Positions 3,870 to 38,835 of a stretch of DNA of 43,882 bases are shown here, one piece after another. The notes under the pieces were generated by a model, which was given only the letters and a program-made list of their open reading frames with translations, had not been told where the DNA came from and did no database searches. The stretch's first letter is position 1. Each line of letters opens with the position of its first letter. A program made the translations under genes and the position numbers. The DNA comes from Psammoneis japonica (Eukaryota), in assembly GCA_008632985.1 (NCBI GenBank), contig QPGO01000348.1:1-43882 (forward strand), in the 5' to 3' direction.

Positions 3870-3989
3870 GGTTTCTTTACCGCGTTCAGCTTATGTACTG
3901 TCCAATGTGGTTTGATTGAAAAACAGGGGGAGATACCGGTCCCGGTTCTTCCAATGTTTTTCTTTCAACAAACACGGTAAATAAATTCA

Positions 3990-6290
3990 ACGTGCTTGCT
4001 TTGTGCTTTTGTGTCACGTGTCACGCATCGTTCAACGTTCTCGCGTTTCTGTGCTGTCGCAATCGTGAATCGTGACAAATTTCAATCACGGTTTGATCGC
4101 GCGAGCATTGGATCGTCTGTCCATCCAACGATCAAATCCTTCCTTTGTCTGCTTGCACACAACATTGTGATTCAACTCGCGGGACGTTGATCCCGCATCT
4201 AACAGTTGCACCTTTGTGTTCAGCAGCGTTTGGTTGAACTGGTTGTTGCGTGCTTGCTGTGGGATTCTTGTGCACCCACAACATGAGAAAAACATGCTGC
4301 TGTGCGAGCTCAGCAGCTTCCCCCAGCAGAGCGCACTTGCAGCTTTGGCTGGCCACCCCAGCGCTGTTGTGCAAAGCACTTTTGACTGAGCAGCAGCTCA
4401 CCACTTTCTCGTGTAACAACTCTTCTGTGTCTTTCAGTGCACAGATGCTGTTGTCAGTGTGCCAAAGTTCTTGTGTGCTCCTCCCACACTCTGTGCCTCT
4501 CTCTGTCAGAGTGCTCCTCCAGCGCCGCAGCTGCGGCTTCACCCCCCGACTGCAGCGCACGTGTTTGGAGGATTTCCACACTGAAACTTCAAAGGCCAGC
4601 ATCATCTTGCCAGTGTCTGGCTCACCTTTGATGACAATGTTTGGCTGCACTCGGCATGGAGATTTGCAGGTCATGTGATGCGATGCAATTGGAGGTTCCG
4701 GTGAGCTGCAGTCAGCCAAAGATTGTTTTTAGGATGTTGGTCCAATTTGGGATGTGGAGCTGGATGCCCCCAATTTAGCAAAGAAACTTGACTGCACCTT
4801 GTTGCGCTGCTTCATTTTTGGCAAGGTGCTGGGCATCCCACATGCTCAACAATCCAAAGCTGAGCAAATCAAGTGTCAAAAAGAACATGCAACCACAATT
4901 GAAAAGGCCATGGCGAGTGATGAAAAGCATTGATGTGGATGACATGATGGCTGTGTGCCATGAAGGTGATGTGATGCCACAAAAATCAACTTCTTTTCAG
5001 GCAAAAATGGTCTCAGGGTTGTTTTTTGCCTCTGTTGACGATGCTGAAAATGACCCCCCCTTCACAATTGCCTCGAAGTCACCCCAAACAAAGCAGCAAC
5101 TGCTCACTGATCTTGGCTGTGATTTTGAAGTCATTGGGCACAAAGTTGGTAAAAGTGTCCTCAAGGGCATGCCCACAAGCCACTCTGCAGCTTGCTTTGC
5201 TGAGCCAAAGGTGAGTGCCTTTGCCAACGTGCCAGCAAAGCTGGTCACTGCCATGGACACCATTGTCTGTTTGGGAGCAACTGTTTTGGGCAAACTCCAA
5301 TCCTAGAAAGAGGCCATCAAGAGGATCTAAAGCTCATCTGATCAATTTCATGAGGCCATTGCCAGGGTTTGCTTCACATGGAAGGAACGAGCACACAGTT
5401 TCTCAGAAATGAACAAAGCATTCTTCTGACTTGCCCCAGACTTGGGTGGCATGCACGTGCCCCTTTTTGCCAAAAAAAAACAAAAGTTTTGTGCTTTGTT
5501 CAACATGGCCAACATTTTGTCAATGTGATCACATTGACAGCTTTCAAGCAAAACAAACAGATGAAATTTGAGCCAAGAATTGGCAGCCAAAACGACCATG
5601 GCTTTCAGCAACCATGACGGCCCACTTTTTTCAACCCAACGTGAAAAATTGAATGGCTCCATTTTGTGCAGCCTCTGTCTCATCAGTGACAGCAATGAAA
5701 ATGCTTGTTGCAGGCTGCAGCACAGCACAAGAATGCAAATCTGTCAACAACAACAATTTGGTCTCATTTCATTCATGCAACTTGCCTCTGAGGACTGATT
5801 GTTTTTCATTGCGCCACATGTGTTCCCTCCACATCATTGACTGGCAAAAGTGCTTCAGTCATTCATGTCAACAAAGCCGTGAAAAGATCTAAAGTTGACG
5901 CCATTGCACGGGCTGACTTTCATTTCTTCTCATGCTTTCAAAAAAAATCACTTGTCAACGAATGTTTTGTTCAATCCATTGAGGGCAACTTGTGTTCACA
6001 CAAGTGCACAAAACATTGCTCATGTTTTCTTCAAGATGAGTGGGCTTGCACATGAGAACATCATGTTTGCTTTGTGTTTTCACCTTCGTGTGAGTGCGAT
6101 CTAAAATTGCTCATGGGAAAACCGAGCTCTCATCTTGCGGCACCATTTGACGATCAACAATTTGGTCCATCCACAGTTTTGAGCACACACGCATGGTTGC
6201 ATGCACGAGACCTTTTGTGTGCTCAATTTGGTTTTGCCCATTTGGGGATCCCCCAAAATGGCAAGGGCAAGGGGGGGGAGTCATTGATGA
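3990..6290. mobile_element. TpA-depleted degenerate block A (unclassified element or gene relic)
   Basis: Only a handful of TA dinucleotides in ~2.3 kb, strong TG/CA excess, no intact gene. Contains a decayed Walker A-like motif at ~4600-4640 (-). Confidence 0.55.
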
Positions 6291-6805
6291 GACGGACTAA
6301 TTTAACAGGAGACTTACAGTGTTTAAAATCACAATTTCGAAAAAGAAAAAACACGTTTGGGAGAAAAAATGAAGACAGTGTAGAAATGCATGACACGTCA
6401 TAAATCCTTAGTCATCCACCATCTTTAATTCAATACAATTTATTATTTTATATGTGCATTAAAAAAGCACTATCGATAAACAACATTTAGTCTTGCGTTT
6501 AACACTCGGCAAATAATAACTTTGACATGAAATATGCTCTTAAAATTACCGTTCAAAATCAAAAACGAAATTTAGCTAGCAATGTTCGCCCGTTCAACGG
6601 TCGCTAAGAAGTCAGGCGTTATTCCTGTTAAGTAAAGGGTGCGTCAGCGACTAATATGATATACTGTATCTCAAGCAAAAATTTAAAAAATCCAAAAATT
6701 GCGGCGCGGGAGTAAAGAATGCCAGGGCAACAAACGACGAACAACCACATTGACATGAATATCCACTTCTCATAAACTTTTCATGGCCTCAAATTGAACG
6801 CAGTC

Positions 6806-8040: not shown

Positions 8041-8229
8041 CAGCCCATGCAGGGGTTTCCGATACTTGTGCTAATTTTAGAATATTTACCTTGACTGAAT
8101 ACTGCCGTTCCTTCTGCACAGCGACCAAAAGTTGCATTGTATCACTGCTTCGGTATTGATGCAGGATAATTGTGCATAGAGAGTTGAATTCTGATGTTTG
8201 ATGTATACACACATTTGCGTTTAACTTCA

Positions 8230-11200
8230 TTGACAGAAGGGATTCGCAACATTTTTGACCAGAGTTAGGCTCCTTTTGCCCAGCAGAGCAGACCTGACCC
8301 TTTCAGGTGTGATGGCACCGCACCTTCGGTGATGGACACATTTGTGCTGTCGATTTCCTCTCATTGAGAGAATGACCTCCTTGTGAAAGCTAGAAACATG
8401 CTTTATTTTGCTCCCTTCATCAAGTCTCTGCTTTCTTTGACATCCAAGGACATGTTTAACCGGCAGATGAATGCATTGAAGCCAATTTGCAGCACAAACA
8501 TTCATCACTGGGCTGCACCAAGGCCATCAGCATGAGACAACAGTTTGACACCATTGGTGAGGAAAGCAAGAGAAACAAATCTTCCGGCTAAAATTTGTTC
8601 ACTGCTTTCAATGCTCAAACCAAAAAGCAACAAATGTTGTCACATTCTCATCATGTGATGAGAATGTTCAACAAGTTTCTTGTGCAATCGCTTGCTTTTC
8701 CCTGCCTGGCCACATGCTGCAAAAAACTTGTGCAAGATTTCAGGTGCAATGTCTCCATTGGTGGGGGTGGTCAGTTCAGAACTTTTGTCAACCACCATGA
8801 AGTGGAGTCACTTGTCCAAACATCAAAATGGAGAAACATGGTTGCAGTGCAGAAGCATGTCACCCAGTTTTTCTCTCAATTGCCAGTCCTGCCAAATGGA
8901 TCCTAAAAAGAGGGAGCAGAAGGAGGGAGATGTCAGAGTGGCAGCAGCTGTGGTGTTTGCATCATCATGATGTGCGAAAATGAAAAGTGGAGAAAAAACC
9001 AACCTCACCTTCAAGACTTGGCTCAATGCACCATGAAGAGAGTGCAGAAATTTTGAGGCTGCAGTTGTTTTTTCTGTTTTGAAGATGATTTCATTCAATG
9101 GACAAGAAGGGTTAGCCTTGCACATGTGGAGTGCAGGGTGTGTCGCGCCACTCATGAAACTGAGCAAGGTTGGGAAGGGCAAGACCTGGGTCACTACCCT
9201 GCATTGCAATTGTGCAAAGAAACAGCATGGGTGCAAGCAATCTCTGACAACAAAATGGGGAGATTGGCTCAAAAGGAAGCCATGGTGGCAAGCTCTTGTT
9301 TGATGTCATTTCTTGTTGTGTTGTTTTTTTTGTGTGCTCTGCACCAAATGTTGTGCCACCTTCAATGACTCATTTGGGGCAAGCTTGTTGACAACAGTCT
9401 GCTCCATTGTTTTGAGTGATCAAGAGTGGCTGAACAATTGGGAAATCTGGCTGCCAAGATGGAAAAAGCTTTGGCTTTCCTGCCAATGTGAAAGCCTTGG
9501 AAACACAAGCAAAGTGATGTGCATGTTCTCAGCAGCAGATCTTAAAGTGGCTGCACAATCAAAACCCACATTTTGTCAACACATGCTGTGCCAAGGAAGG
9601 AAGCCCAAAAGCCCCAGTTCTGACTCCATGCAAACTGCATCAATTTTCACAAGCTGAGATCAAGGCAACTCAGCTCTTCTTGAAAAATTTTCTCTTTGAA
9701 ATGGCAAGGCAAGGTTGAGGCAACAAATTCACCCAAGTCACTCACAATGGAGGAACTCTGCAGCAAGTCACAAGAAGAAGCATCAAGCACCATCACTCCA
9801 GCTGGTAGAAAATTCATGATGCAAAAGTCAGTTTGGCCCTCTCTGTGAGACATGCTGGTCATTGACTCAAGTTGCCACAATTGACTCTCTGCAGCTTGAC
9901 CTGAAAATGGGGCAAGAATTGCTGCTTTTTGCTGGCTTCTCTCTTGGTGCACTTGCCAACACCCTCCAATGTCTGTGTGCCATGTGTCGCAAGGTGTGCC
10001 CAAACCATTTGTGCTGGACAATGCTGTTGAGTTGCACACAGGTGCCAACCATGACAGCACAGTGTGAAAAACTGCATGCATGAGAAAAATGTGGCAACAC
10101 TGAGACCAAAGGGCACCAATGCTTTGAATGACCCATCATTGGGCTCATGACTGCCAGAAGGTTGTTGTGCTGATGGATCTGCGTGCTGTTTCTTGCTTTT
10201 TTTGCAACAAAGCACTTGCTCTAGATGCAAAAGATCTTTGCAAATGAGCAGATGGCATTTTCTTCTTCTGTCAAGAATGAGCAAAGCACAACTGGGCACA
10301 GGCAAGGAAGATGGTGGAGGAAGTGGGGGAAGCACTTGGTTCACCAAAAAGGCACCAGAAAGGAGTTCTGGGATCTGCCACAGCTGAAAAGAAGCAAACA
10401 TTGAAGCAGTGGCTTGGGTGGCAAAGGTGATGGCAACAATGCCTTGTTGGCTGTGTTGGGGCTGAATGATCTCACAGATTCAGACAGCAAGCTCAAAAAG
10501 AACCCAGACATGAAACAAGCATGGTTTTTGGTGGAAAATCTTGGCAAAGCACTGCTGCATCAGAGGCTGCAATGCAGTGATCATCACATGTGCTGTCACA
10601 GTGATTTTCATTCCTTTCACAGTTGGCATTTTTGCAGTTTCAAACCTCATTGGTTGTGCAGCTGGCAACAAATTTTCATCTGTGACAGTCAATTAAATTT
10701 GCTGTGGAGACATCTTTTTAACTGCAAGAAATCAACTTTAACTTTCTAAAAGCCCCCTCTTTTCACACATTCTTCATGTGCCTTCCTCCACTGCAGAAGC
10801 TGAAAATTAACATCATCAGTTTGTTTCATGTCACACGCCAGTTTTTACATTTAAAGTGATGATTGCAATGAATTCAGTCCACTCTTCTCAATCAACAGTG
10901 ATGTGTTGCTTTTGCTTTTTAACATTGATCATCAATTGACACTGAGCAAATGCTGCGGTGCCGGTTCTTCCACATTTCCAATTGGCTCACACTGGAGTTT
11001 TACATTCTTTGCTTCCGTTGCTTTCTTCTTGGCTGGCTCTGTTGTTTGCAATTGTGCTTTTGAGCTTGGGACCAAACAACTCCATTCCAAAACCATTGGC
11101 AAAATGTTCCATTTTGTCAAAATCAACCTCATGTCGGGAAATTGGAAGGAAGGATTGGGGTCAACCTCATCATGGGATGGGGTAAAGTCATTGACTGCCA

Positions 11201-12350
11201 TGGCAAGAGGTCAGTTGTGATTTGCATGGAATGCACGTGGATCACAACAGCGCATGCTCAGGTCAAATGCAGTTTGGGGAGAGGATGCACTGTTGTGAAT
11301 GCACAGACAATTGCACATGTAGAATGAGTGCTCGAAGCCGGGTGGAGAGCCATGCACTGAAATTCTGGGAGGTGCTGGAAAAATGAGGCAGGAAATGCAC
11401 ATGGGGGTGACTTGGGCACAGAGGACACACCAGACACTGTGGCGGGGCATGCACACAAGATGGAGCCATTGAAAACAACAATCAAAGACAAGATTGCAAA
11501 ATGGGTGCAATGTTGTTGTCAAATTGCAATGTGTGAAAATCAAGCAAAGGATAAAATTCAAATGGGTTGCCAAAAACAAACAAAAGCAAACAGGCAACAA
11601 AAGTCCCCAAACGCATCTGACAAAGGCAGTGTGTCATTTGCTTTTACAGTCAAAAATTACAAACAAAAGATTGACACACACAACGTTGATTGGCACAAAT
11701 CACACAAAGAAAATTGAACACCATTGTGTTGCGGCCTCTGATGTGGATGAACTCAGCTTTTTTTTGCAGGTGGCTGAAGCTGAAGGTTGCAGACTTGCCA
11801 CGCAAGGAAGCCTGACCTTGTGAAGAATTTGACAAAGCTTGACATTGGGCAGATGACCCCAAAATGCACCCAATTGGCTTGCCAAGTTGCCACTTTTGCA
11901 GTGCTCCCATGGAGGCTGCAGCCCAAGCCAATGCCTTGGTGTGGCCTGCCCCAGTGCATTTCTCCCACCATTGCAGTGCACCTCAGTCTCTCCATCAATG
12001 CTCTGGGCAAGAGAGTGGATGGTTGCAACAGCATTGTTTCTCTCAACAAATTTGATTTCTGGATCCATCACACCCACCATCAACTTCTTGAGTCCGACCT
12101 TGTGATGAAGCACTTGCAGCCCGCAAGAAAAAACTGTGAGAAATCACAAACAAATGTCACGCCCCAAGTGCCCCATCGCTGGCATCATCATAAATGGGCC
12201 CAGGGCACAGACGATGTCGTGAAAAAAAGGCGAACTCGTAAACGTCAAGTCGTGACACCTGCAACAACGTCAACACATCTCTCAAAACGAAGATCAGAAC
12301 AATGCCCGAAGTCTCAGCCCGCAGGAAGAGTGACGTGTGACGACTCCTCA
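8230..12350. mobile_element. TpA- and CpG-depleted degenerate block B (unclassified)
   Basis: ~4.1 kb with very few TA or CG and a TG/CA excess. Only short Cys/His/Gln-rich, Tyr-poor ORFs; no recognisable domain. Confidence 0.5.
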
Positions 12351-21527: not shown

Positions 21528-22136
21528 TCACTTCGCGATAAAGCAGGTTGGTTCGTCTGTTTGGATTTGTCTCAGAAAGTTGGCCCGGAGCCGATCGATA
21601 CCAGGGGGTGGTGGAGCTAGACGTTGCACCAGACTTGCATACTGTTCCTGTGCCGCACTATTACTACTGTGAAGGGGGTGTTGAATATCCGTCACATATT
21701 CAATGGCGCACTTTCCAAACTTGTCCTCCACGTGAGGATCGGCGCCACCGGTATCCAAGAGTAACTGAACCAACTCGACAGATTGTGGTGGTGTTAGTTT
21801 GTGCGATGTTAGTGCCACATGAAGAGGAGTTGCTCCTGTCAGCTCATTGGTAGCATCGACGTTGGCTCCGGCTTGAATAAGGTATCGGGCAACGTCGACA
21901 TGGCCCCATAGGACGGCGAGATGTAAGGCCGTTTGTCCAATGGCGTTCCCGTGGGATGGGGGAACGCCCTGGTTCTCGATCAAATCACGGACTTGGTCCA
22001 ATTGATTCTGAGCTGAAACGGATAAGAGTAGATCCCATTCGGGTGGAGAGAAATCCTTGATCAAGCGATCCCAATCGATGTTTGGTGGCAACACTGGATT
22101 GTCGCCGCCATCATTGTCTTGGTTGGGAGCTTCCAT
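21528..22136 (-). CDS. Ankyrin-repeat protein (~200 aa)
   Basis: GQTALHLAVLWGHVDVARYLIQAGANVD, GATPLHVAL and GADPHVEDKFGK motifs; ATG at 22136. Confidence 0.85.
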   Translation of the reverse strand: MEAPNQDNDGGDNPVLPPNIDWDRLIKDFSPPEWDLLLSVSAQNQLDQVRDLIENQGVPPSHGNAIGQTALHLAVLWGHVDVARYLIQAGANVDATNELTGATPLHVALTSHKLTPPQSVELVQLLLDTGGADPHVEDKFGKCAIEYVTDIQHPLHSSNSAAQEQYASLVQRLAPPPPGIDRLRANFLRQIQTDEPTCFIAK

Positions 22137-22384
22137 GATCTTTAAGTGAGGCCTGGTCCCCAAGACGGTGAAGAGTGCAGAGGAGGGCACTACTGTACTG
22201 TACCGTACTAACTACCGAATGAAACGGCAAATGGCCTAAAAGAGCCTTATGACATCCAACGCACGCACCGGAGTGCAGTGCTTGTGGCCATCTGCTCTCT
22301 CCTCTAGCTACTCTTTACTCTGGCTAGCTAGAGCAGCTGCTAGCTAGAGGGATTACACCAGCTAGAGTGGCCATGACAATTAGC

Positions 22385-24350
22385 CTGTCATTGCTGATGA
22401 TGACAGACGATGTGAGAGGCACGCAACAGTGCAGTGCGTGAGGCAAGACCAGGCGGCCTGCGAGGTGGGCAGGGCCGAGGAGGTGACATCAGCGCAACAG
22501 GAAACAAAATCAACACCAACAATTAAAAAAAAAACAGTGTGATTTTGACATGCCATCTGGCATGCAGCTCAGAGTTTCTCTGTTGGTGCTGCTGGCCATG
22601 GTTTGACAAGAGCTGGCACGACACAAGTGGCTCTCCTCGCACAAACATTTTCTTGGCTCTCACACAGCGTGAGAAGATCTTGCTGCATTTGTGTGGCAAG
22701 CACATCAAGGCAAGCTTTTGCATTGGAGCATTGTGCTCAGGATGTCAGCAAAACAGTGTGCTCTGAAAGAACTCATTCCTGTTTTTGTGTGTGAGAAGCT
22801 TGTGAGGGGCTGAAGGCAACAACGGAGATTTGGTTGAAGCAAGCAGCTCTGTTTTTGAGGCCAACACATGGGAACAGTGCATGATTTGTGCTTTTCCCAA
22901 TTCTTGGCAATGCTGGCTGACATTGGAGAATGTCCTCTGCTTGGCACAAAAAGAAAGAAAGCCACAGCTGCGCCCCCAAGCTTGGCATCAAAACTGCTGG
23001 GTTGGAGCTGCAAAAAAATCCAGCAGCAGCACCAGTTGAGGGAGAATCTCATTCTCCTGGTGCACTTGCTGCCAAGACAATGTGGTCAAAAGAGTCAAGT
23101 GTGCAGCCCCAACAGCAAACAAGAAAGTGCAGAGCCAGCTCATTTGTCAAGCCCCAAAAATTTCATCAAAAAAGACATTCCAAAACAGAGAGCTGTGCTG
23201 TCTTGTGTGCTGGAAGCTTTTGACAACCTCCTTGCCATGAAAAGTCAAACTGTGCAGCAAGGGTGTGGCAGCTTGAGATGAAGTGGCAGCCCAAACAACG
23301 AGCATCAGGCCAGACGCAATGAGGGAGTCATTTGTGGTTTGTGGCCAAACTCTCTTGGAGGATTCAATGACATGTGATGGTTGCATGCAGGAGAAGGCAG
23401 ACGGGCAGATGCAATGAGGGGGTTGTTTGTGAGCAGCCAAGGGCAGGTCTTGGAGGACTCACCATGCAATGGTTGCACAAGAGAGAAGGCAGACAGGCAG
23501 ATGACAGCAGTTTGCAGAAACTTCTTCTCCTCATTCTTGGAAGATGTCATGATTGGTGGCAATGGGGCGAGCTGTGGTGATTTGCCAATCTCAGCTGTTT
23601 CAAAAAATCTGCTTTGTTGCCATGCTGCAGGATTTGAAGAATTTCTCCACAAGCCAGCAGATTTTAGCTGCACAGTGCTCCAAAAAGCTTGCTTTGTTGT
23701 TTCTGATCCATCACATCAGAGCACAATCAATGTTTTGTGTTGGCTTTGCTTGATCAGCCTGCTGGCCATGAAAAAGAGCTCACTGGCCATTCTCATGTTG
23801 GATCTGCTGGAGAGTCTCTGCCCACCTGGAGTGATTGCATGAACAAATGCAACCTTGCCACAAGCTTGTGATGCACAATTTTTTGTCAAGCAATGTGGCA
23901 GCATGAGCTGCTTGCTGAGATCACAGCATCAAAGCAAGCTCACATCAGGAGTGCTCTTTTCTCATGCTGCCAAGAGTCAGATTCTAAATCTAAATTCTGG
24001 GCTGCAGAATGTGAAGAGAAGGCTTGACAAATTGCACTCAAGCTGGGAGAGTTTTTTTTTGCAGAAATGCGGTGTGATGAAGAAACCCAACTGCAGCAGT
24101 GCTCCACAATTTCCAGAGAGAAAAATGAGCTGTCAATGAGAATGATGTGCTCTGTGACAAGAGCCGCGCCAATGCCCTTCCTCCATGTGGCAAGCAAAAG
24201 AGATTGATGAAGAGCGAGCCACTTGCCGCAGGGAGCAACAAACATTTTGTGTGTTGCATCCTCCTGGAGAGAGCGGCGCATGATGTGCATGATGTGGACA
24301 ATGTGAATGATGATGGTTCAGCTCAGGTCTGCCATTTTAAATGCATGGGT
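22385..24350. mobile_element. TpA/CpG-depleted degenerate sequence upstream of the Copia element (block C, left part)
   Basis: Almost no TA, TG/CA-rich, no intact ORF; contains a ~95-bp tandem duplication. Confidence 0.5.
23311..23503 (+). repeat. Degenerate ~95-bp tandem duplication (2 copies)
   Basis: CAGAYGCAATGAGGG..TTTGTG..GCCAA..TCTTGGAGGA..CATG..ATGGTTGCA..GAGAAGGCAGAC.GG recurs at 23311 and 23406. Confidence 0.8.
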
Positions 24351-24359
24351 TGTTTGGTT

Positions 24360-24553
24360 TGTGAGATGTCCCTCTGACAGACATCCGAGATGGGGAGTGC
24401 ACTCCCTTGTGTCGGACAGACCAGCACAGACAGCATGGAGAGATCCGATGATCTCTCCTTTGCTCACTTTCTTTCTCATCTAGCACACGATTGTCATCTG
24501 TCCTAGATGTCCATTGGATTGTCCCGATGCCGCTAGTCCGCAAGGTCATGAGC
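24360..24553 (+). repeat. Putative 5' LTR (~24360-24542, TG...CA) followed by a PBS-like GGTCATGAGC (24544-24553)
   Basis: Lies ~190 bp before the gag ATG. GGTCATGAGC differs by one TA->CA change from the GGTTATG(A/G)GC internal tRNA-iMet primer site of some Copia elements. No 3' LTR is present to confirm the boundaries. Confidence 0.4.
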
Positions 24554-27500
24554 AGCAGTGCACTGTTCCTCTTCCTCTGTGCTCCTCTGTTGCAACGCCA
24601 ACTGTGTGATTTGGCGACTTTTTCTTCGTTGAAATCATCATCATTGTCGCAGCTGTTTTTCACCTCTCGATTTGTGATCAAACGACCACCGCAGAACACA
24701 TGCCAGAGCTCTGCGCAGGAATTTGATTTTTTTCCTGCGCAACCATGGTGAACAAAAATCAAAACGCCGTCGATTTGACCAAGATCAAGACGACACGGGT
24801 TGAATTCAGCCCACACAATCGCTTGCCTGATGCCCACACTTTCCTGAACACCCTTTGTTCGGACGCGATCCCTGCTCCTGAAGATCTTTTGGATGGATTT
24901 GCCCCTCAAGGCCTCAAGAGCAATGCTCTTGCTGTTCTTTGTCACAAGATCGTTCAGAATCTCATCATCCCTGAAGCTGCCCTGACTGAAGATCTCACAC
25001 GAATCGGACGATCATTGAAAAGGCTCCTCTGTTTGTGGCCACCCCCAAAGGCTCCCCGGTTTGTCTGAACCTCAGTGCTCTTCAGAATGCTGTGGTTGAA
25101 GTGATCACAGAGAATCACTGCACCACAAAGGCACATGTTGGCACTTTGCGTTTCCATTTCAGCCCTGATTTCCAGTGTTGTGATTGCTGGGATGACATTT
25201 CAGATGATCTGCATCCAGTCCCACTGGCTGCTTCAAGTTCTGCATCTCCATTGATTGCTGCTGCAGGTCCTGCTCCTGAAGACTTTGCCAAGGCCTCAGC
25301 TGCTCATTTGCCTGGTCCAAAACAGTTTGAGCAAGCTGTGACAAATGCACTGAAGAACTCTGCTCCCAAGGCATCATCTCCTGCACCGTCTGCCATGACT
25401 GCTGCTGGTGCGGCTTCTTGCTCAACTGCTGCCAGTGCTTTGCACACCTTTAATCCGAAAGGACTTCCAAAGGATGTGCTGGCCTGCTGTCAGCGCAAGA
25501 AGCCGGGAAAGCAGCGCTCGGAAAATCTCTGGTGCCCTGCAAGTCTGGAAACCTTTGTTGTGAGGATGGCACTGAGCGTCTGATCCTTGCTGATGGTTCT
25601 CTCTTCGTTCATCGTACTGACTGGGATGCCAAGTCTTTTCTTCGTGACCCTCTCACTTGTGATGACATCTCTCCTCAAGGAATCCGTGCATGGCACACTG
25701 CTGTTGCCCAACAAGCCTGGCTTGTGGTGTGCACATGCATCCACTGTGGTGTTTCATCAAGAAGGATGGTGGAAATTGGGGTTTCACCTGTGGTGATGAT
25801 CCAACCGATGATCTCCCTCTCCGGATGATGGCAGCACTTGACCGAATGAAGCTGACTGTCTTCCAGCACATTCAGAAAGTTGGAATTTTTCCAGCAGACT
25901 CCAAGTGCCCTGACATTGTTCGTCAATGCTGTGGTGATGGATGTGCTGCCATCAAGATGACTCTCTTTGACATCCTGCCGATTTGGACGAAGCGTCCGCA
26001 TGAGTTGATCAAGAGCCACCCACACCAAAACAATCTTGCGGTCCTCAGCTGCTGTGCTCTGTTCAGAGACTGTCTCCAGCTACGAGCTGTCATCTCTAAT
26101 GTTGATGCCTCTCTTGACGACCCTGGTGAGCTCGACATTTTTCTCAGCAATGCCCGCTGTGGCGAGCACCTTCTCCTTAAAACAGCAGATGCCCGGGAAG
26201 ACATGAACCAACAACACAAGTTCACCCAGAAGAATGTTGTTGAAACTGTCAGTGCGATTCTCAAGGAACTGGACAGTCCTGCTCTTCGTGTCAAGGACCC
26301 TCCCAAACATCCTCCACATCATCTTCACACTTCGCCTGCTCCTTCTCTCAGAGCCCCTGTCCGAGGTCTTGACTTGCTTCCCAAAGATGAAGTTTCTACT
26401 CCGCCTCCAGCAATTGAGGAGCCTCCCAAGGAACCTGAACCTCCTGCCATGGAAGAACCCATGGAAACTGTGGAGCATTTTGTGAATGAACTTGCTGCCA
26501 TGGATGTTCCTGCAGATGATGATGCACAGGCCCTCCATGGCATCTACAAGGCCTGCATCTGTGGGATCAAGTCCTCTCCTGCCATTGCACAGAACCGTCC
26601 ATGTGTTTTTTGTGGCAACAACCACTCATTCCATGAGTGTCCTGCATTGAATGATGCTGAGTGCCTGCGCACTCATCTTGTTCGGTTCTCCCAGTTCCTC
26701 CACCGTGATCAGCGTGCTCGTGATGCACTTGGGTCTGACACGGCCAAGAAGGATTTTTCCTGGGGCCATTGTCATGTTCAGACAAACAATGCCGCCCATC
26801 CTCCTCCAATCTGAAAACTCCTGCAAGCGGGGTGACTGTGAAAGAGAGTCCAACCGACTCGTCACCTTCCGCTGATGCGCCTCTTTCACCTGTGTCATTT
26901 GCCAGCCTTCTTTCGGGCTCGACAAAGGCTGGTGCTCCTGATCCCAAGACGATTCCTGATGATGACTCTGGCAATCACAATCAGGGGAGGGAATTGGATC
27001 TTTCTACACTGGATGCTGATGTTCCATTGTCCACTGGTCAAGATCAAGACCAAGAATTTGAGTGTCTTGACATGATCAACACCCAGCATTTGTCGCCTCT
27101 CAGTGTCGCACATGTCTCCCCGATTTTTTCTCCCCTGGAGTCACCTGAGACCTTTGCATCCTTGACCACTCCAGTCGTTCCCATCAATCATGTCCTTCGT
27201 GATTCAACGACACATGGTGCACAGATTGACACTGGTGCTTGGGCATCCTGCACAGGGGACAAGAACCTCCTCCATGCCTGTGCTCCCTTTGGACCGGATG
27301 ACCCTTGTCCTTTGAAGATGCTTCCTGCCACTGAAGGCTCTGACATGGTTCCTCATGGCTTTGGTTGTCTGCAGGTGCCTGCAGACAATCCTGAAGGTTT
27401 TCTTCTTGTGCGCACTTTTTACCATCCCAGCCTGCGTTCCACTTTGATTGATGAACGTGATTTTGCGCAGGCTTCTGGTTTCAAACCTCAGTTCATTCGC

Positions 27501-30500
27501 TCCGAGCTCCTTGAGAAGACATGCGCCGACGGCACTTGCACTTGCACTGCTTCCACTGACACTGCTTCCACTGACACTCAAGAGGCAGTTGTCCATGGTG
27601 TGCTTTGACATGGCAAGGTCTTCACACAACCCCTGGTTCCTCCATCTACGTCTAATGTCCCTTCGACATCAACGACCCCTGACTTGTCCTTGGTTGATGA
27701 CATTGATGATGCATGACAACGTGCAGTCTTTTTCATCAATGTCCAACAAAGTCCATCCGATCCCTTGCTGATGGATGCTGAGCTGTTTTCGATGCAGTGT
27801 GACTCAGCTTCCCATGTCTCCCCTCCGTTGTCTCCCTCTGCTCCTGTCTGCTCTCTCAAAGTTGAGACTGAACATCTTCTGTGGCATCAACGCCTTGGAC
27901 ATCCCTGCAATCACCACTTGTGCAATGCTCACAAGTGCATCAAGGGTGTCCCGAAGTTCCAACATGCTGATCCTGTTCTTGATGTGTGTCCTGCGTGTGT
28001 CCAAGCCAAGCAGGTCAAGACTCCTGCTGGGCTGAACACGACTTGGAAGGCGACCCAGCCATGCCAAGTTCTCACTGTAGATTTTGCTTTTGCTGGCCAG
28101 ACTTCCAAGAATGAAGACCGCAAGGTTGATCATCTTGGATGTGATGGCAAAACGTGTTGGATTGCTGTCTACGATCATCACACACGGATGCTCCATGGAG
28201 TGGCAAGGGTTTCCAAAGCCAGTCCTCTCAAGTGGCTTTGCCAATTCTTGGATCGACATTCACCAAATTGTTGTGACAAACATGTGTTTGTGGACCAAGG
28301 TGGGGAATTGTACAAAAACCCCAAAGTTCGTGACCTCTTTGAACGAGAATTCCAGCATGACATCTGTCCTTCTGGCACTGGCGCATCCAACCAATGTGGA
28401 CCTGTTGAACGCTCACATTTGACTGTTGAAAATGCGATTCGTGCAATTTTAATTGGCGCCAACCTTCCGATTCGATTCCGGCCCTGTGCATTTTACCATC
28501 ACCTCCGCATCAAGAATGCCACTCCTGCAAAAGATCAAGATGCGGCACCCATCACTCTTGCTGCCAGAAAGGTCAAAGATTTTACTGCTCTGAAGACTTT
28601 TGGATGTCGAGTGTGGTCCAAACGGTCCACTGCTCATTCTGCTGCCTTCCGGACCAATTCCAAGAAGGGTGCATTCCTTGGTTGCCTTCCAAACACCCTG
28701 AAGAATGTTGTGTGGTGGGATCCTGAGACTGACAAAGTCAAGACGGCCAAGCATGTGTGCTGCGATGAAGGCATGAATGACCTGTTTTTGGATCAACTTC
28801 CTCCCAATGCTGTCCATTTACAGCATGTGGAAAATGGTCAGCCTTTTCCAGCTGAAACACAGGACACCACCGTTCCTGTGTTCACCTCTTCGTTGAATCC
28901 TTTTGCTGCGACTGTTGCATGCACCATGAAGCGTCCCCCAAAGGATCCCACCTGTGGTTTTGGATTTTCCCAGCATGCGCCAATGGACCATGTCTGTGCA
29001 TCGGAAATCAAGCAGCACAGTCCTGCGGCATCCTTGTTCTCTTCCTTCCGTGCTGCTCACAACAAGATCATGGGTGCATGCATTGTCTCTGTCAACAAGC
29101 ATGAAGTTTTTACTCCGTCGGATGCTGAAGAGGCCTCATCTCAGGTCTTCCATGATGAAATCCCAACCTTCAAGATTGCTTTTGCGCTGGAACGACGATT
29201 GGATTCTTGCACTCTTAACAAGGCATTTGAGGAAGCGGAGTCATTTGAACCTGACTCCATGGAGGATGACTCCCATGTTCCCGAACTTGCTTTGGAAGAT
29301 GTGCGATCTGTTGTGGCCCTTCTCCACCCCGATGATGATTTTTCGGATGAGGCTGTCCCCACGGACATCTTCCATGCACACCTCAATGCGATCAGCTCCC
29401 GCTCTCTCACTCCGGAGGAAGCTGCTCTTGACCACCTCACCCGTGCCAAGCTTCGTAAACTTGACACATGGCCTGAATGGGAAGAAGGTGAGCAGCGTCA
29501 ATTGGATCAATTTCATGCCCTTGGCATGTGTGGTCCTCCGCAACCACACCCCCCTGGCGTGAACATCATGAGTCCACATTGGGATCATGTGGCAAAGCTG
29601 GATGGACAACGTTGTTCTCGGCAATGTGGTGATGGTTCCAAGTCGGCAATGCCGGCCTCGCATGAGTTGACTTCCACCCATTCATCGTGTGTGGAACGCT
29701 CTGTCGAAAAGATGTTTTTTACTCTCAGTGCAGCCATGTCCTGTCGTGTCTTCAGTGGTGATGCTTAGGATGCCTGCGCTCATTCTCCTGGTCCTTCACA
29801 GCCGGTTTTCATTGCCACTGATGATGCACATGCTGCCTGGTGTGAAAAGACATTTGGCAAGAAAGCACCCCGCCACTGTGTTCTTCCACTCAAGCGTGCT
29901 CTTCAAGGTCACCCTGAAGCTGGTGTCCTTTGGGAAAAGCACATCAATTTGATTCCAACGGGTGCAAAACTTCTTTTCCACAATGCCGCTCATGACAAGT
30001 GCATCTGTTCTGGTGAATGTGATGGTGTCAAGGTCCTTCTCCTTCATCAGGTCGATGATTTTGCCCTTGCTTGTCCCTCCAAAAAGATTGCAAAAGAGAT
30101 CTACGACCACATTGGCAAGACTCTCCAGATGGAAAATGAGGGTGCTCCTCCCTTCAAGCATTTTGGCTTGGTTGCTGAATTCAATGGTGTTGATGTCATT
30201 CAAAATGACGGTTCAATTGCTGTCAACGTTGCCAGCTGCCTTGGCCATGTTTTCAAGACCCATGGTTGGGATGCTCCTGCTGTGAATGAATCTGACTCTG
30301 ATTTCAAGGCTGCACCTGTTCCAGTTGATTGCACCCCTGATCTGTGCACTGCTGAAGGTCCTGAGGAGGGTGCTCCCGAGTGTGATGCTCTCGCTGAGTC
30401 CCAGGGATTCTCTTGCCATTCTCTTCTGGGTGAATTGGTCTTTGCCTGCTCCTGTTGTCGTTTGGACATTGGTTGTCCTTTGGCCCCGGCTGAGCTTCAT

Positions 30501-30670
30501 TGTGATTCACTCAAGCGCATGGCCAAGCATTTGCGGCGTGCCAAACATTGGGGACTGATGTGTGAGAAGTCCAAGCGCGATCCCGGTCTGCCTCCTCGTG
30601 ATTTCAAATGGCTTGAGGATGACTCATCTCTCCCGGACTTCCCTCGTGCTGATGACCTTTTCCAACTTGC
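24360..30670 (+). mobile_element. Degenerate Ty1/Copia LTR retrotransposon (CoDi-like), truncated before RNase H
   Basis: Order is gag (from ATG 24745; zinc knuckle CVFCGNNHSFHEC ~26600), protease (QIDTGA ~27220), pre-integrase/Zn finger (LWHQRLGH..CPAC), integrase (VDFAF, VDQGGELY, GPVERSH), then RT (LKRALQGHPEAG, QVDDF ~30050). INT before RT indicates Copia. Several frameshifts and a stop at 29766-29768. Confidence 0.92.
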
Positions 30671-31190
30671 AAGAGTGGTTGAATCACTTTTGGTGGACAA
30701 ACATGTTGCAGCTCCAACTGCGCTTGTGTGTGCTGGTGTGTCAGCTGCCTTGGTGGCACGTCTCATGTGCAATGGGCAGGAGCAGGCATGAAGCTTGTGC
30801 AAGAACCACAGCCTCTCCCCATTGTTGGGGCATCATTCAAGTGCACAAAAACCTTTTTGGTGCAAATTTGATGGCTTCGCTGCACAAGAGTCCAGGGGTG
30901 GTTCGAGTGTGGCTGCAAAAAGTGAGAGAGCGCCAGCGTGCTTGCTGCTGCGTGCGCTGACAATTGATTGGGACAAAGGAGAAAGACACAAGAGATCTTC
31001 ATTCTTTTTTCAAGGACCATCATTGCGTGCCGTGATTGGAGAGCTTTGGCTCATCTTTACTCCACCATGGTAATCGAGTTTGTTGAGCGATTTTTTGTTT
31101 TGTCACGAGGGCATGCGTCTCTACAGCACAGTGGAAAATCAAAATTGCCGGTGGCACACCCCGACAAGTGTCAACAGCCAAAAACTTCTT
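30670..31190. mobile_element. TpA-depleted non-Copia sequence (block C, right part)
   Basis: Copia similarity stops abruptly after ..DDLFQL, while TA depletion continues to ~31190. Confidence 0.45.
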
Positions 31191-31341: not shown

Positions 31342-32964
31342 ATGAGCTTCGGTTCAGGGCTTCGAGCATGGCTTGCTTTAATCTTGATCCTCCTGACAGC
31401 ATCATCATTGTCCATAAAACGCCCAAATATTGTGACTGTTTTGTGTGATGATTTGGATTCGGAACTCGGTGGCGCCAACGCTTCAACTTTGAAGTACACT
31501 CGCAAGTGGTTCCAACAGAACGATGGAATGATTCTGTCCAATTGGTTTGTGCATACCCCCGTCTGTTGTCCCTCGCGTGCTCAATTATGGACGGGAAAGA
31601 TGTTTCACAACTTGAAAACTCCACATTTCGGACACGAGGGTTGCATGCACGTGGACGTGAACGCCACAAGAGAGTCTCTGTTCTATGCGCGCGACTATTT
31701 TGCCCCACACTTTAGCAAGCTCAATTATACAGTGGGTTTCTTTGGAAAGCATCTCAACAACGCAAATCCCATTGACTTTATTCCAGATGGCGTCGACCAA
31801 TGGCTTGTGAATGGTGGAGGGATGTATCTTAATCCGACATTTACATGGGCCTCCCGCAACAGCAAACCCGTTGAGATCAAATTTGACAATTGTTCCCAAT
31901 CAACCGGCATGCCTTGCTACTCCACTTCTGTCATTGGAAATGTCAGCCTCGCTTGGATTCGGCGACACGTCCAATCATCGTTTTCTTTGAAGCCTTTTTT
32001 TGCTGTAATTTCTGTCAAGGCACCACATTTGCAAGACAGACCAGGCTTTCCCATGTCGATATCCGCCCCCTGGTATGAGAATACGTCGATACCCGAACAA
32101 ATGGCGCCACGAACCCGAAACTACAACCTATCATGCCCTGATCATCATTGGTTAGTTCGTAGCCAACCACCGCTGTCGAAAATACAGGGAGACATGGTGG
32201 ATAAGCTCTACACCAGTCGCCTCAAGACAATCCTCTCGGTCGACGACTTGATGAAAGACCTCGTATCGACCCTGACCGACTTGAGGGTGTTGAATGATAC
32301 GATTGTTATTTTTACAAGTGACAATGGCTATCGCTTGGGTCAGTTTCGAATGCCCCAAGGCAAATTTCACGCCTACGAAAACGACGTGCGCGTGCCAATG
32401 ATGATTCGCGGTCCTGGCATTCAACCACAAAAGCAGAAGCCGTCCCCTATTGTGGGTACCCATGTAGACCTTATTCCCACTTTGTTGGGCCTGGTCCAGA
32501 ACGATTCATCACAAATGATTGTTCCTCAAACCATGGATGGAACCAATCTTGCGGGTGACCTGCTTGCTGCAAAGAACGGAACATCAACGGGCGTGTCTAG
32601 CATAAAGTCGTTCCTGATTGAATACATGAGTTTAGGCAACATTGTTCGCTACCAACATTTGGAAGACACCTACAACCACACCTTTGTGGCACTCCGTATT
32701 ATAAACTTCAATGTCAGAGCAGAGGACGGTCTCCGTAACTTGAAATATGTGCAGTACCGAGACTCCCAAGAGGATTGGAGTGGCACTGCCAAACCACCCT
32801 TGGAGGTTGAGCTCTTTGATTTGGACAAGGATCCATTGGAAATGCACAATTTGGCCAAGACTGCCTCACCCGTCTTGTTGCAAGCCCTACAAGAGAAGAC
32901 TATGCGCATGTTTCGTTGCCAAGGAGACTCTTGTCGCAAGGAGCAACGCAGGGCGCTTTTTTGA
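31342..32964 (+). CDS. Secreted sulfatase, N-acetylglucosamine-6-sulfatase-like; intronless
   Basis: Signal peptide, RPNIVTVLCDD, formylglycine motif CCPSRA, FFGKHLN, FTSDNGY, GKFHAYENDVRVPMMIRGPG, ELFDLDKDPLEMHNLA. Confidence 0.92.
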   Translation: MSFGSGLRAWLALILILLTASSLSIKRPNIVTVLCDDLDSELGGANASTLKYTRKWFQQNDGMILSNWFVHTPVCCPSRAQLWTGKMFHNLKTPHFGHEGCMHVDVNATRESLFYARDYFAPHFSKLNYTVGFFGKHLNNANPIDFIPDGVDQWLVNGGGMYLNPTFTWASRNSKPVEIKFDNCSQSTGMPCYSTSVIGNVSLAWIRRHVQSSFSLKPFFAVISVKAPHLQDRPGFPMSISAPWYENTSIPEQMAPRTRNYNLSCPDHHWLVRSQPPLSKIQGDMVDKLYTSRLKTILSVDDLMKDLVSTLTDLRVLNDTIVIFTSDNGYRLGQFRMPQGKFHAYENDVRVPMMIRGPGIQPQKQKPSPIVGTHVDLIPTLLGLVQNDSSQMIVPQTMDGTNLAGDLLAAKNGTSTGVSSIKSFLIEYMSLGNIVRYQHLEDTYNHTFVALRIINFNVRAEDGLRNLKYVQYRDSQEDWSGTAKPPLEVELFDLDKDPLEMHNLAKTASPVLLQALQEKTMRMFRCQGDSCRKEQRRALF

Positions 32965-33229: not shown

Positions 33230-34730
33230 TAGTCTGGGTTAAGGTGTGGATCTGGTGAAACAGGCACAGGGGTGGCATCATTGGAACCCTCCAGCACCAT
33301 TGCATCATGACTTTTGGTGGGCAGCTGGGCAGCATTCCAGTCGGTGGGGTGGTGCTTGATGGTTGTGCACAAAATGATTGCAGTTGGTAATGTGGGACGC
33401 TGCTTCAGTGGCTGCACTGAACAGTGGTGGTGAGTTGGACTGTCCCATGCTGGCAAATGGGCTGGCATTGCTGGTGGTGGTGGTTTGCCATTTTAGCTGG
33501 GGAAAGACCACCCTGAGAATGGGTGTTTCTGTCAAGCCCAGTTGCAAATGTTGGAAGCAGTTGTTGGCCAGGTCTGTCTTCATGAGATGCATGCAGCCTT
33601 GGGCTGGGTCTGCCAGGAGGACATGTTGCAGAAGGTGGTCAAAGGTTTGCCCAAATTGTGTTGGTTCCATTGCTGCATTTGGTTGTGCAGTGATGTTCAA
33701 GCCACAGAAGGAGCAACCAACAACTGCTGCTGGGCATGTTTTGTGGGCTGAGGTGCAGGTCAGGTGCGTGATTTTTTGCCTTAGTGTGCAGGGCCATGAC
33801 CCAAAAACCCTTGTCAGCCATGCCATCTTGAAGAAGTTGATGTGTCAGCAGACAGACCTGTGTGCTCCCCCAGGCAATGCCAGCATCTGGCTCAGCTTGC
33901 ATCTGTGGGGCAGGCAGCACCATCAGCTGTGTGGTGATGGACGTGCCTTGGCACTTGCAGGGGCCTGCAACAGTTGGTGCACCAGATGTTGTTTGGTGCA
34001 GCACAGCTCTCCCCAGTCTCCTCTGCCAATTCAAATGCACAGCAAGTTGCTGAGTCCTCTGCAACACAACCTGCGCTTGTGATGAGGGGTGGCCACAGTG
34101 CTCTTTGAAGCTTTTCTCCACAGTCGGGGGTTGTGGAGGTGCCGGTGCTGGTGCCAACAAATGAGGGGGCTCTTGACTGCAAGTTTCCAAACTGGAGCTG
34201 TTGCCAAAGACCTGTTTTGTCTTCCAACGCTCCACACCCCAATTGAAGCGGTGTGGCCATGCTCCTCCTTGGTGCGGTCATCATGAAGAGTCACGCGCTT
34301 GGCTCTCCCCACAAAGGAGTTGACTGTGCTGACCCTTGCAGCAGTGCAGCAGGCAGCAGACCACTCCTTTGTCATTCTTTGATGACTTAATCTTGCTGCA
34401 TTTGCGCCAGATCTTGATGTCCCTGGACCTGGCACTCTTCCTCCTGTTGCAGAGAGGGGGCGTCGAAGTGCCAGTCACCCAAAGCTGCTCCTGCCATCAT
34501 CACTTGGAGTGCATGCCCCACATTCAATGGCTGCATGGTGGACAAATTGGGTTGCACTGATGGTGGCAAAGTGAGAGGTGTCAGCACCTGGCGGCTCCTT
34601 TAGCTGCCTCGTGGTTTTCGGTGCGTTGTCCTGAGGGATGTCTCCGCACGAGCGAAGGTCAAACGCCGAAAATGGCGTCCATTTTTCGCGCTCGCAACAA
34701 ATCGCGTTGCGACCGCTTCATGCACCTAAG
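33230..34730 (-). mobile_element. TpA-depleted block D with a relic of a DIRS/Ngaro-like reverse transcriptase
   Basis: Minus-strand fragments MADKGFWVM..DLHLSP, QFGQTFDHLLQHVLLADPAQGCMHLMKTDLANNCF and MGQSNSPPLFSAATE resemble RT motifs of tyrosine-recombinase retrotransposons (KxDxxDGFY; LPMGWxNSPPxFxxATE). Frameshifted. Confidence 0.6.
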
Positions 34731-37530: not shown

Positions 37531-38835
37531 CGTATTGAGCAGAAAATGAGATTGCTAATCAAAAATAATGATTGATCCTTCCGGAATGTTCGAACGATGA
37601 CACGGGAATCCAAGATTGTGGAAGGGAATGATGCGCAGATGTTCCTCCGGCAACAAAATGTGACGGGAAATCCTCGAAATGCAAGTTGCCGGTAGAATAC
37701 CGCTGACGTTGTCTTTCGTGACGTAAAATTGTGTGAGATTTCAGTGCAAATAAAATTCCCGCGCTTTTCTTTGTAAATTTTTACCCCTAAAAGTATGAAT
37801 AAAAATTAATAACGCAAAATGCCCGCACCTCTTGCTCAACTTCAATAATCGCCACGTGCTTCTCACGAGAGAACGCAGTACATGTGTGTCCGATTTGTGT
37901 CGTACGACTGACTTTTACGTCATATCCGGGTCTCCTTCTATCGGCGAGAAAAAAATGAGACTCGAAATCTTGCTTTCAACTCTCTGGAACTCGCTCTTTA
38001 TCTTATATCTTATCCATCACAATCGAACAAACACAGAGAGCGAAGAATCATCATCAACCATCAACGGTAGGGCTTTCGACAACTTTGGTGGCTGCTCGGT
38101 CAATCGCCATAAACAGCCAAGGTGTACAATTTCGTCAACAATCGGTGTCGTTCTCTTAAATCATGTCTCCCAACAATGAAGTTGCCACACGAAATTCTCA
38201 ACTCATCTACGCAAAACACGCGTCCTTTGTCACATCTGATTCAAGCTTAACTGAAGCTGACAGCATTATGGGAGCTCAAGAAGGCGATATTCATTCCATT
38301 GTATCATCTGAGGATTGGCACTCGGTAAGTTTTGTCTCGTTTCGTGCCTTCGCCGATCAATGATTTGAATGCGCATCGATTGATTAGATGCGATCAGTGT
38401 GGTGTCGGTTTCAATTTCGTCTCTTTTGCACTGTGGCATTATACAACATTGAAATACTCTCTTTAGCAAGAAATTGACTGCTTCTGTCATGTTAAGCGTG
38501 TTTGAATGCCGTATTCGTCATTGTCGTTCCCAGCAAGAAACCGCCAAGCGATCCTTCGGGAGACATCAAGAAAAACATCAAATGCAACCTCCAGTATTGT
38601 AGAAAGCATTGGGGTTCTTTGTGCGTACGAGTTTCAACTTGTGATGTCATTTGCAATGATTATCTACAGCAACGATTTGTTTTTATTTCTCAGTTCGATC
38701 CGTGCCAATGATCCAGATCATATCAGTTTGTCTGATTGTCACGTGTGTGCGCGTGCTACCCGTCTCAAACAACCTGACCTGTAACGCACATAGTTTTTTC
38801 TTCTCACATTTCTTCTTCTTATCTGCGGCATCACC

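Follow-up and report, generated by a model that had tools for sequence, protein, structure and literature searches.

Probable TpA-targeted hypermutation in four sharply bounded islands, one of them holding a Copia retrotransposon, in a contig of the diatom Psammoneis japonica

A 43,882-nt contig of the diatom Psammoneis japonica (QPGO01000348.1, assembly GCA_008632985.1; forward strand, hereafter the window) carries a degenerate Ty1/Copia-type long terminal repeat (LTR) retrotransposon copy, which lies in one of four islands where the dinucleotide TpA has nearly disappeared. The best overall explanation that we can offer, and one that we consider probable, is TpA-targeted hypermutation of transposon-derived or silenced DNA with CpG decay superimposed on it; that a mutational process specific for TpA has been at work is, in our judgement, very likely. 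Composition and alignments with related elements demonstrate the context, direction and strand symmetry of the putative changes, as well as their confinement to islands with sharp edges, separated by host genes of normal composition.

Between positions 24745 and 30670, where a preliminary description of this DNA had placed the loss, 24 TpA were found against 212 expected when the observed/expected ratio (o/e) of the normal parts of the window was applied (o/e 0.07; Poisson p-value 9e-61), with TpG at an o/e of 1.75 and CpA at 1.43. The depletion is real and stronger than had been described, and the interval proved too narrow, as around the Copia element it begins at 22401 and ends near 31060, with further TpA-poor blocks located at 3951-6300, 8401-12350 and 33251-34700. 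When pooled, the four islands (16,410 nt of the 43.9 kb) hold 75 TpA (o/e 0.07), compared to 872 in the 20,871 nt of the pooled normal parts (o/e 0.60), and they show higher o/e values for TpG (1.74 compared to 1.20) and CpA (1.65 compared to 1.18). The island/normal ratios are thus 0.12 for TpA, 0.39 for CpG, 1.46 for TpG and 1.39 for CpA, with the remaining twelve dinucleotides at 0.90-1.16. No depletion was observed for ApA (o/e 1.32 in the islands, 1.16 outside) or ApT (0.89 and 0.94), and ApG stayed at the same level (0.96 and 0.95), which supports the specificity for TpA that had been proposed. Two candidate causes were discarded on these grounds: methylation of adenine (N6-methyladenine) directed to ApT, because ApT is not depleted, and GC-biased gene conversion, which acts without dinucleotide specificity.

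The few TpA that survive in the islands are not a random sample, as only 4 of the 75 stand in ATAN or NTAT contexts, compared to 398 of the 872 in normal DNA (Fisher test, 8e-14), and the best-surviving context is TTAA (15 in the islands, 39 in normal DNA). The scarcity of ATA and TAT may reflect an extended preference of the mutator, and part of the bias may come from TpA newly created by other mutations, such as the TAG at 29766. A context test on the third position of tyrosine codons (TAT versus TAC) was dropped, since a later C->T change before G alters the third base; the relatives described below use 65 TAT and 94 TAC codons. As a further consequence of the composition, TGA makes up 850 of the 963 stop triplets in the four islands (88%, compared to 51% in the normal parts), and spurious long open reading frames (ORFs) occur in all six frames of the islands, with 56 ORFs of at least 80 aa overlapping 23.5-32 kb.

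At the codon level the same loss appears as a near absence of tyrosine. The four stop-to-stop ORFs of the element encode 1/383, 1/290, 3/684 and 1/341 Tyr, a total of 6 in about 1,700 codons, in contrast to 16/540 in the sulfatase ORF nearby, counts that reproduce exactly those given in the preliminary description. The integrase ORF contains 30 Cys, 39 His and 3 Tyr in 684 codons (Tyr 0.4%, Cys 4.4%), and 69 relatives have Tyr contents of 3-4%, Cys of about 1.5% and His of about 4%. To define ancestral residues, the integrase and reverse transcriptase (RT) parts were aligned with 32 relatives, and consensus columns were those with at least 60% agreement among at least 8 relatives. Of the 23 columns with consensus Tyr, 2 still read Tyr in the window, and the others have changed to His (8), Cys (7), Phe (3), Pro (1), Trp (1) or Leu (1). 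The retention of 2/23 compares to 339/479 for all other conserved columns (Fisher test, 2e-9). The replacement codons were CAT (7), CAC (1), TGT (6) and TGC (1), so that 15 of the 21 changed columns read CAY or TGY in an 8:7 split, and both surviving Tyr codons in consensus columns are TAC; in the RT part, Tyr->Cys/His codons are found at 29775, 29829, 30006, 30414 and 30528. Eight codons had been singled out before as former tyrosines, all of which do read TGY or CAY; the majority of the relatives have Tyr at seven of them, whereas at 28683 they have Phe (22) rather than Tyr (8). The alignment also supports the direction that had been assumed, from ancestral TAY to TGY or CAY.

To place this composition in context, the homologous pol segments of 80 metagenomic loci encoding relatives were compared after orientation by their coding strand; one of the search patterns contained DQGGEL[YF], and heavily mutated relatives are hence under-sampled in this set. 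The median TpA o/e of the 80 segments was 0.54 (5-95%: 0.40-0.74; minimum 0.16), with medians of 1.47 for TpG, 1.14 for CpA and 0.71 for CpG, whereas the pol segment of the window has 0.10 for TpA, 1.73 for TpG, 1.46 for CpA and 0.52 for CpG. As the same segment has normal TpA in the relatives, the TpA-poor state is derived with respect to them, and an origin as foreign DNA natively poor in TpA was rejected on account of the minimum among the 80 relatives and the loss of conserved tyrosines. The gains over the sense-oriented relatives are close for TpG (+0.26) and CpA (+0.32), and together with the similar numbers of Cys (7) and His (8) replacements they indicate that both strands were affected equally, as had been suggested, so that editing of a single sense transcript would not suffice. 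At the nucleotide level the loci nearest to the element were 63-70% identical over short stretches.

Some of the relatives carry the signature themselves. Locus L014 (6-1274) has a TpA o/e of 0.16 with a CpG o/e of 0.79, and its 8 Tyr columns read C4, H1, F1 and Y2; locus L018 (1176-2184) has a TpA o/e of 0.21; and protein P0034 contains 0 Tyr in 549 residues, its 9 Tyr columns reading C4, H3, F1 and E1. In contrast, the control relatives P0001 and P0004 retained the consensus Tyr in 18/19 and 19/20 columns. Pairwise comparisons with the respective nearest locus gave a ratio of TA->TG/CA to reverse changes of 21:2 for L014 against L006 (70% identity) and of 16:4 for L018 against L068 (83% identity), with no comparable asymmetry at CpG in either pair. 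These results demonstrate that apparent TpA loss recurs in other environmental diatom elements. As the replacements found in the window and in P0034 at shared Tyr positions often differ, the losses in these two elements were probably independent events.

The edges of the islands are sharp to about 150 bp. At 22.4 kb, TA is spaced at 5-20 nt as far as 22381, after which 1,280 nt contain a single one (22524); at the other end of the same island there is no TA between 30102 and 31058, with normal density restored from 31215, before the sulfatase gene; and the remaining edges show the same abrupt pattern. The normal-TpA parts encode ATG22/MFS, FG-GAP, ankyrin, sulfatase, G6PD and nucleotide-sugar transporter proteins. 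A Pfam scan of 42 ORFs from the other blocks gave as its sole match a sub-threshold Maf domain, and no similarity was detected by blastx against the 69 relatives or by tblastx against the 80 loci; the blocks at 8401-12350 and 22401-24374 in particular had no Pfam match and no similarity to the Copia relatives, nor, for the former, to the other blocks. The TpA-poor blocks were also mutually dissimilar by exact-seed repeat search, by sensitive blastn and by a 28-mer search in a purine/pyrimidine alphabet, which is insensitive to transitions. Because the other islands have neither Copia similarity nor a family match beyond the Maf-like one, the signature seems to have no visible tie to reverse transcription.

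Sequence repetition alone does not trigger the depletion. A tandem triplication of 1,445 bp (12581-17038, 94-100% identity), located inside a minus-strand FG-GAP repeat ORF, is normal for both TpA (o/e about 0.5) and CpG (about 0.9) in its copies, with the caveat that an expressed gene may be protected, and several of the depleted blocks are at single-copy depth. The triplication is followed at 17038-18700 by an array of 24/48-bp units, rich in G+C (0.60-0.64) and strongly GC-skewed, in which TpA and CpG are normal as well.

CpG is depleted in the islands as well, to an extent that varies from o/e 0.07 to 0.5, and consensus Arg was retained in 17/37 columns, with replacements that include His (5), Cys (3) and Trp (1). 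TpA, on the other hand, is uniformly low (o/e 0.04-0.09) at any level of CpG, and nearly TpA-free island edges at 3990-4250, 12090-12345, 22400-22500 and 34590-34720 keep a CpG o/e of 0.75-1.54. CpG decay is superimposed on the TpA loss, yet this uniformity and the CpG-rich edges make it separable, with a different footprint. The CpG-rich, TpA-poor edges are possibly unmethylated ends of inserted elements.

To look at other copies of the element we used a public sequencing run (X1), which may be the assembly's own data, and of which 2,144 contigs aligned at 90% likeness or more. Contigs from X1 matched the flanks, differed from the flanking TpA-poor blocks at 0-2 places and matched exactly three element pieces of single-copy depth (166, 165 and 176 nt). 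The summed depth was 750-7450 over 24.4-30.7 kb compared to about 60 in the flanks, and other copies diverged with loose ends at 24375 and 30668; given this excess, the element belongs to a family that comprises tens of copies, with many solo LTRs besides. A total of 228 differing places were found, with transitions making up 190 of the 226 that were tallied by kind. The reading of copy differences was based on the 40 best-supported of the 228 places, 36 of them inside the element, leaving 188 further places outside the set. Among these 36 there were at least 7 exchanges between CpG and TpG/CpA, 5 adjacent pairs in which TG and CA were swapped, and 2 places with CA where the window keeps TA (25615 and 26097). 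At 24422-24423, C>T was seen in 16 contigs and A>G in 13, and up to 3 of them would read TA. About half of the depth of the other copies has an extra C behind 25008 that would undo the first gag frameshift, suggesting that some copies are less broken than that in the window. In single-copy TpA-poor blocks, an X1 contig reads TA at 34425, against TG in the window, and TG at 23315, against CG in the window; these are possible allelic or strain differences of both mutation types.

The closest precedent is the hypermutation described for the chlorarachniophyte Bigelowiella natans, in which TpA->TpG and TpA->CpA mutations arise de novo in integrated viral DNA (Mettrop et al., bioRxiv 10.64898/2026.01.13.699255, 2026 preprint). 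As far as the preprint's text describes it, two viral inserts took 231 of the 302 nuclear single-nucleotide mutations of the mutation-accumulation lines, 230 of the 231 were A->G or T->C changes falling on TpA, a mutation rate raised about 1000-fold was measured in these lines, TpA-poor coding sequences were enriched in RT and DDE domains, and an ADAT2-like adenine deaminase was proposed without test (10.64898/2026.01.13.699255). The window resembles that system, to the extent of the preprint's account, in the conversion of TpA to both TpG and CpA on both strands, here deduced from sequence rather than from de novo events; in apparent confinement to foreign or mobile DNA with the host genes spared, the Copia element being the one island resident identified as such; and in TpA-poor, CpA- and TpG-rich clusters amid normal sequence, with RT-bearing sequences among those depleted. 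When the cluster criteria were taken from the preprint's text, 15 of the 43 1-kb windows passed, including three runs of four at 8001-11999, 22001-25999 and 27001-30999. The two cases differ, again going by that text, in the host (a stramenopile rather than a rhizarian), in the targets (an LTR retrotransposon family and relics rather than nucleocytoplasmic large DNA virus and virophage sequences), in the degree of depletion (near-complete here, with o/e 0.07, compared to 0.45 in the large DNA virus region of B. natans) and in the CpG decay that accompanies TpA loss here. The bias to ATA/TAT among lost TpA was likewise seen here, whereas the main text of the preprint mentions neither flanking context nor diatoms (10.64898/2026.01.13.699255). 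Our literature search found this signature in that one work and no report from a diatom, so the preliminary remark that no description from diatoms was known still holds, whereas the process itself does have a precedent. The window therefore seems to hold the same kind of hypermutation in another host lineage, with retrotransposons as targets.

If this is right, the A of 5'-TA-3' would be converted to G on either strand, leaving TpG or CpA, in targets consisting of transposon-derived or silenced DNA, and the process would have run nearly to exhaustion, with ordinary decay of CpG to TpG/CpA on top. About 190 TpA per 6 kb would have been lost along the family lineage, a loss by which Tyr codons would have become codons for Cys or His, and the stops TAA and TAG would have disappeared. 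The chemistry would be an enzymatic deamination of adenine to hypoxanthine, for which an ADAT2/TadA-like enzyme is the candidate, as in the preprint, and the targeting would depend on a chromatin or small-RNA mark and not on sequence repetition as such. Action on chromosomal DNA is suggested by analogy with the de novo TpA mutations of B. natans, and we regard the chances that a deaminase would act in place on DNA as evenly balanced.

Other systems that mutate or edit mobile DNA share part of this footprint. Repeat-induced point mutation (RIP) of Neurospora and other fungi introduces transitions in a dinucleotide context on both strands, riddling mobile DNA and sparing genes, as seems to be the case here. 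However, RIP converts CpA to TpA and therefore enriches TpA, opposite to the direction found in our islands (TpA o/e 0.07, CpA 1.65), and it is triggered by duplication and needs the sexual cycle and RID/DIM-2, whereas here the 1,445-bp triplication was left untouched and depleted blocks are at single-copy depth. The term "inverse RIP" used at first for this DNA consequently holds only as a loose mirror-image analogy. Hyperediting of repeat double-stranded RNA by ADAR in animals resembles our case in producing A->G changes with a preference for 5' U/T in repeats; it acts on RNA and also edits ApA, so that a strand bias after reverse transcription and a loss of ApA would be expected, neither of which was seen here. 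APOBEC3 enzymes likewise kill retroelements by deaminase-driven, context-specific hypermutation, but they deaminate cytosine in the minus strand of the cDNA only, and the changes here are A:T->G:C and symmetric. Finally, methylated transposons undergo decay of 5-methylcytosine at CpG, and our islands show it as well (CpG o/e 0.07-0.5). Such decay is unable to remove TpA and leaves a different footprint, as illustrated by L014, which is TpA-poor with a CpG o/e of 0.79.

Several observations weigh against hypermutation acting on integrated DNA. The whole case is built on the composition of a single window of 44 kb, with consensus residues taking the place of ancestral ones; with no LTR pair in the window, changes after integration are undated, and no de novo mutation was seen. 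The paired TG<->CA differences between copies may equally descend from CpG, and 0 unpaired changes restore TA among the 36 best-supported places in the element. A->G changes at codon first positions after T were found in 10/13 cases compared to a baseline of 70/111 (P 0.38), a baseline of conserved G-start codons that is already raised by CpG->TpG. Above all, most of the TpA loss seems to be common to the other copies as well, which would place the bulk of it before the amplification of the family. Active, intact copies that are TpA-poor and carry the same Cys/His residues had been named beforehand as a result that would refute the hypothesis, and the X1 copies go part of the way towards it. 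Either a depleted lineage kept amplifying, alone or mobilised in trans, or the loss accrued along the transposition lineage, and a shared loss is compatible as well with editing in the course of retrotransposition, or with selection.

Editing within the retrotransposition cycle, in which a deaminase would act on the RNA (leaving TpG in the sense strand) and on the minus-strand cDNA (leaving CpA) with the changes inherited along the family, is the strongest of the alternatives, though we hold it to be improbable. It would suit an LTR retrotransposon whose copies of 90% likeness or more all appear to be TpA-poor, so that the loss would have been carried along by amplification; a preference for a 5' U is known of ADAR enzymes, and the editing of cDNA has a precedent in APOBEC3. 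Nevertheless, to our knowledge ADARs are found only in animals, ApA is untouched here, unlike in ADAR hyperediting, and the equal gains of TpG and CpA and the 7:8 ratio of Cys to His would demand matched editing of two substrates. Furthermore, four other blocks without a retroelement signature, one of them with a Maf-like fragment, are equally depleted, and in B. natans, as reported in the preprint's text, integrated sequence from DNA viruses acquires this signature de novo. A family that looks TpA-poor throughout and reached tens of copies would also be compatible with selection, by which the residents of the islands evolved to avoid TpA or UpA, whether because of a UpA nuclease or of hypermutation itself, and the TpA-poor state would be their working composition. 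The possibility that selection acts against UpA in expressed RNA has been raised in the literature, and both surviving consensus-column Tyr codons are TAC. We find this account quite unlikely, as TpA is normal in related elements (median 0.54), Tyr has gone from positions at which it is retained by 26-32 of 33 relatives, the copy is frameshifted and truncated, the non-coding LTR and the relic blocks are equally depleted on both strands, and values of 0.04-0.09 lie far under the minimum of the 80 relatives (0.16).

The two remaining alternatives have very little probability in our view. Modified bases of silenced DNA could have been miscalled during sequencing or assembly, given that the CpG depletion makes methylation of the islands likely and that the records of the assembly and of X1 name no sequencing platform. 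However, single-copy k-mer contigs of X1 match the TpA-poor blocks and element pieces (with the reservation that X1 may be the same data), the Tyr->Cys/His pattern recurs in independent metagenome assemblies (L014 and P0034), the depletion is about 90% complete and sharp-edged, and genuine decay in the form of frameshifts and truncation is found alongside. Error-prone synthesis of the Pol eta type in silenced chromatin, a candidate put forward in the preliminary description, would yield A->G after a 5' T at the DNA level; its WA->WG spectrum includes ApA, which is not depleted, with ApG unchanged, and this candidate is accordingly disfavoured.

On the reading that we prefer, hypermutation of TpA in DNA, a broader and more tentative scenario can be outlined. 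It is conceivable, if on balance rather unlikely, that TpA-directed deamination is an old genome defence within the stramenopile-alveolate-rhizarian (SAR) lineage, present at least in rhizarians and stramenopiles and saturated in diatoms, from which transposons escape by becoming nearly TpA-free and Tyr-poor, and so ceasing to be targets, while still amplifying; the family-wide TpA-poor state is the basis of this scenario as well. With the same reserve, the preference for ATA/TAT and the independence from CpG could correspond to the recognition of double-stranded TpA by the enzyme.

Table 1. Features of the window. Positions refer to the 43,882-nt contig; o/e, observed/expected ratio of TpA unless stated otherwise; depth, summed depth in run X1.
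Feature	Coordinates	Strand	Observations
TpA-poor block with degenerate Maf-like fragment	3951..6300	.	o/e 0.07
TpA-poor block	8401..12350	.	o/e 0.06-0.09; 8401-10700 has CpG o/e 0.07, the lowest of the blocks
TpA-poor, CpG-poor block	22401..24374	.	o/e 0.04; single-copy depth 62.6; abuts the element
3'-truncated, frameshifted, multi-copy Ty1/Copia-type LTR retrotransposon copy	24375..30668	+	Pfam, relatives, X1 depth; o/e about 0.07
5' LTR plus leader	24375..24745	+	begins with TG; peak X1 depth 7452 in bin 24170-24603
gag-protease part, at least 4 frames	24746..27608	+	ORFs 24727-25068, 24990-25583, 25666-26814, 26739-27608
Integrase ORF	27717..29768	+	in-frame TAG end 29766-29768; gag_pre-integrs, SH3_retrovirus
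RT part, ends before RNase H is complete	29769..30668	+	weak RVT_2
TpA-free block 3' of the truncation point	30669..31060	.	single-copy depth 57.6
Sulfatase gene (host control)	31345..32964	+	o/e 0.47; Pfam Sulfatase E 2e-35; 16 Tyr/540
TpA-poor block	33251..34700	.	o/e 0.07; CpA 2.01; TpG 1.70; single-copy depth

The assignment of the element to the Ty1/Copia group (Table 1) follows from the order of its domains, with integrase before RT as in the Ty1/Copia polyprotein, and from its nearest proteins in a search that covered 5.8 billion sequences, which were Copia polyproteins of Nitzschia inconspicua, Cylindrotheca fusiformis and metagenomes, at identities of up to 51%. Pfam missed the integrase core, gave no match for the gag-protease part and scored the RT under the curated cut-off (RVT_2 profile positions 112-229/244, E 2e-4, in ORF 29769-30791); the diatom Copia polyproteins at 51% identity carry all three domains. 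No second LTR or direct repeat flanking the element was found within the window by exact-seed search, blastn or comparison in the purine/pyrimidine alphabet, and this single-LTR state reflects a truncated copy rather than evidence against Ty1/Copia membership. The peak of depth over the LTR fits the presence of many solo LTRs. At the TAG that ends the integrase ORF the relatives have Gln (CAG), so that its TpA was apparently made anew by C->T and is still present.

Among the other islands, the Maf-like fragment (5061-5297, plus strand) matches Pfam Maf with an E-value of 5e-6, slightly under the cut-off, and the PDB Maf chains 4heb and 1ex2 at E 0.002; a word-indexed protein search with this part returned 10 candidates, 0 of them significant. 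Its SPRR-type motif, expected in this nucleotide pyrophosphatase family, reads SPQT, as decay of CpG in Arg codons would give, and the fragment places a gene of cellular type within a hypermutated island. On the host side, the G6PD gene (38794-40399, plus strand) is split between two frames that overlap (38794-39576 and 39359-40399), perhaps because of a short intron or a frameshift. Most of its relatives are diatom G6PD-6PGDH fusion proteins, and the best named relatives of the 39359-40399 frame come from diatoms of different classes, Extubocellulus, Proboscia, Nitzschia, Epithemia and Seminavis among them (56-64% identity), with oomycetes at 50-52%. These matches mark the window as diatom DNA, with no closely related named species in the protein collection.

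In the literature that we searched, the disabling of invading DNA by TpA-targeted mutation of A:T pairs had previously been reported once, in 2026 and for one chlorarachniophyte. A far fuller footprint in a diatom, shared by relatives of its element from the environment, would mean that the process is not the oddity of one alga, and that it may be widespread among the marine protists that dominate primary production. As protocols for transformation, knock-out and mutation accumulation are available for diatoms, the enzyme and the targeting signal would become findable, and an enzyme specific for the adenine of TpA in DNA would be of interest for base editing. There are also consequences for annotation, since hypermutated elements without TAA and TAG retain extended open frames, which could be mistaken for genes by gene callers, and their Tyr-poor, Cys- and His-rich products distort family searches. 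If the scenario of escape were true, the dinucleotide composition of these elements would be the record of an arms race between transposons and their hosts.

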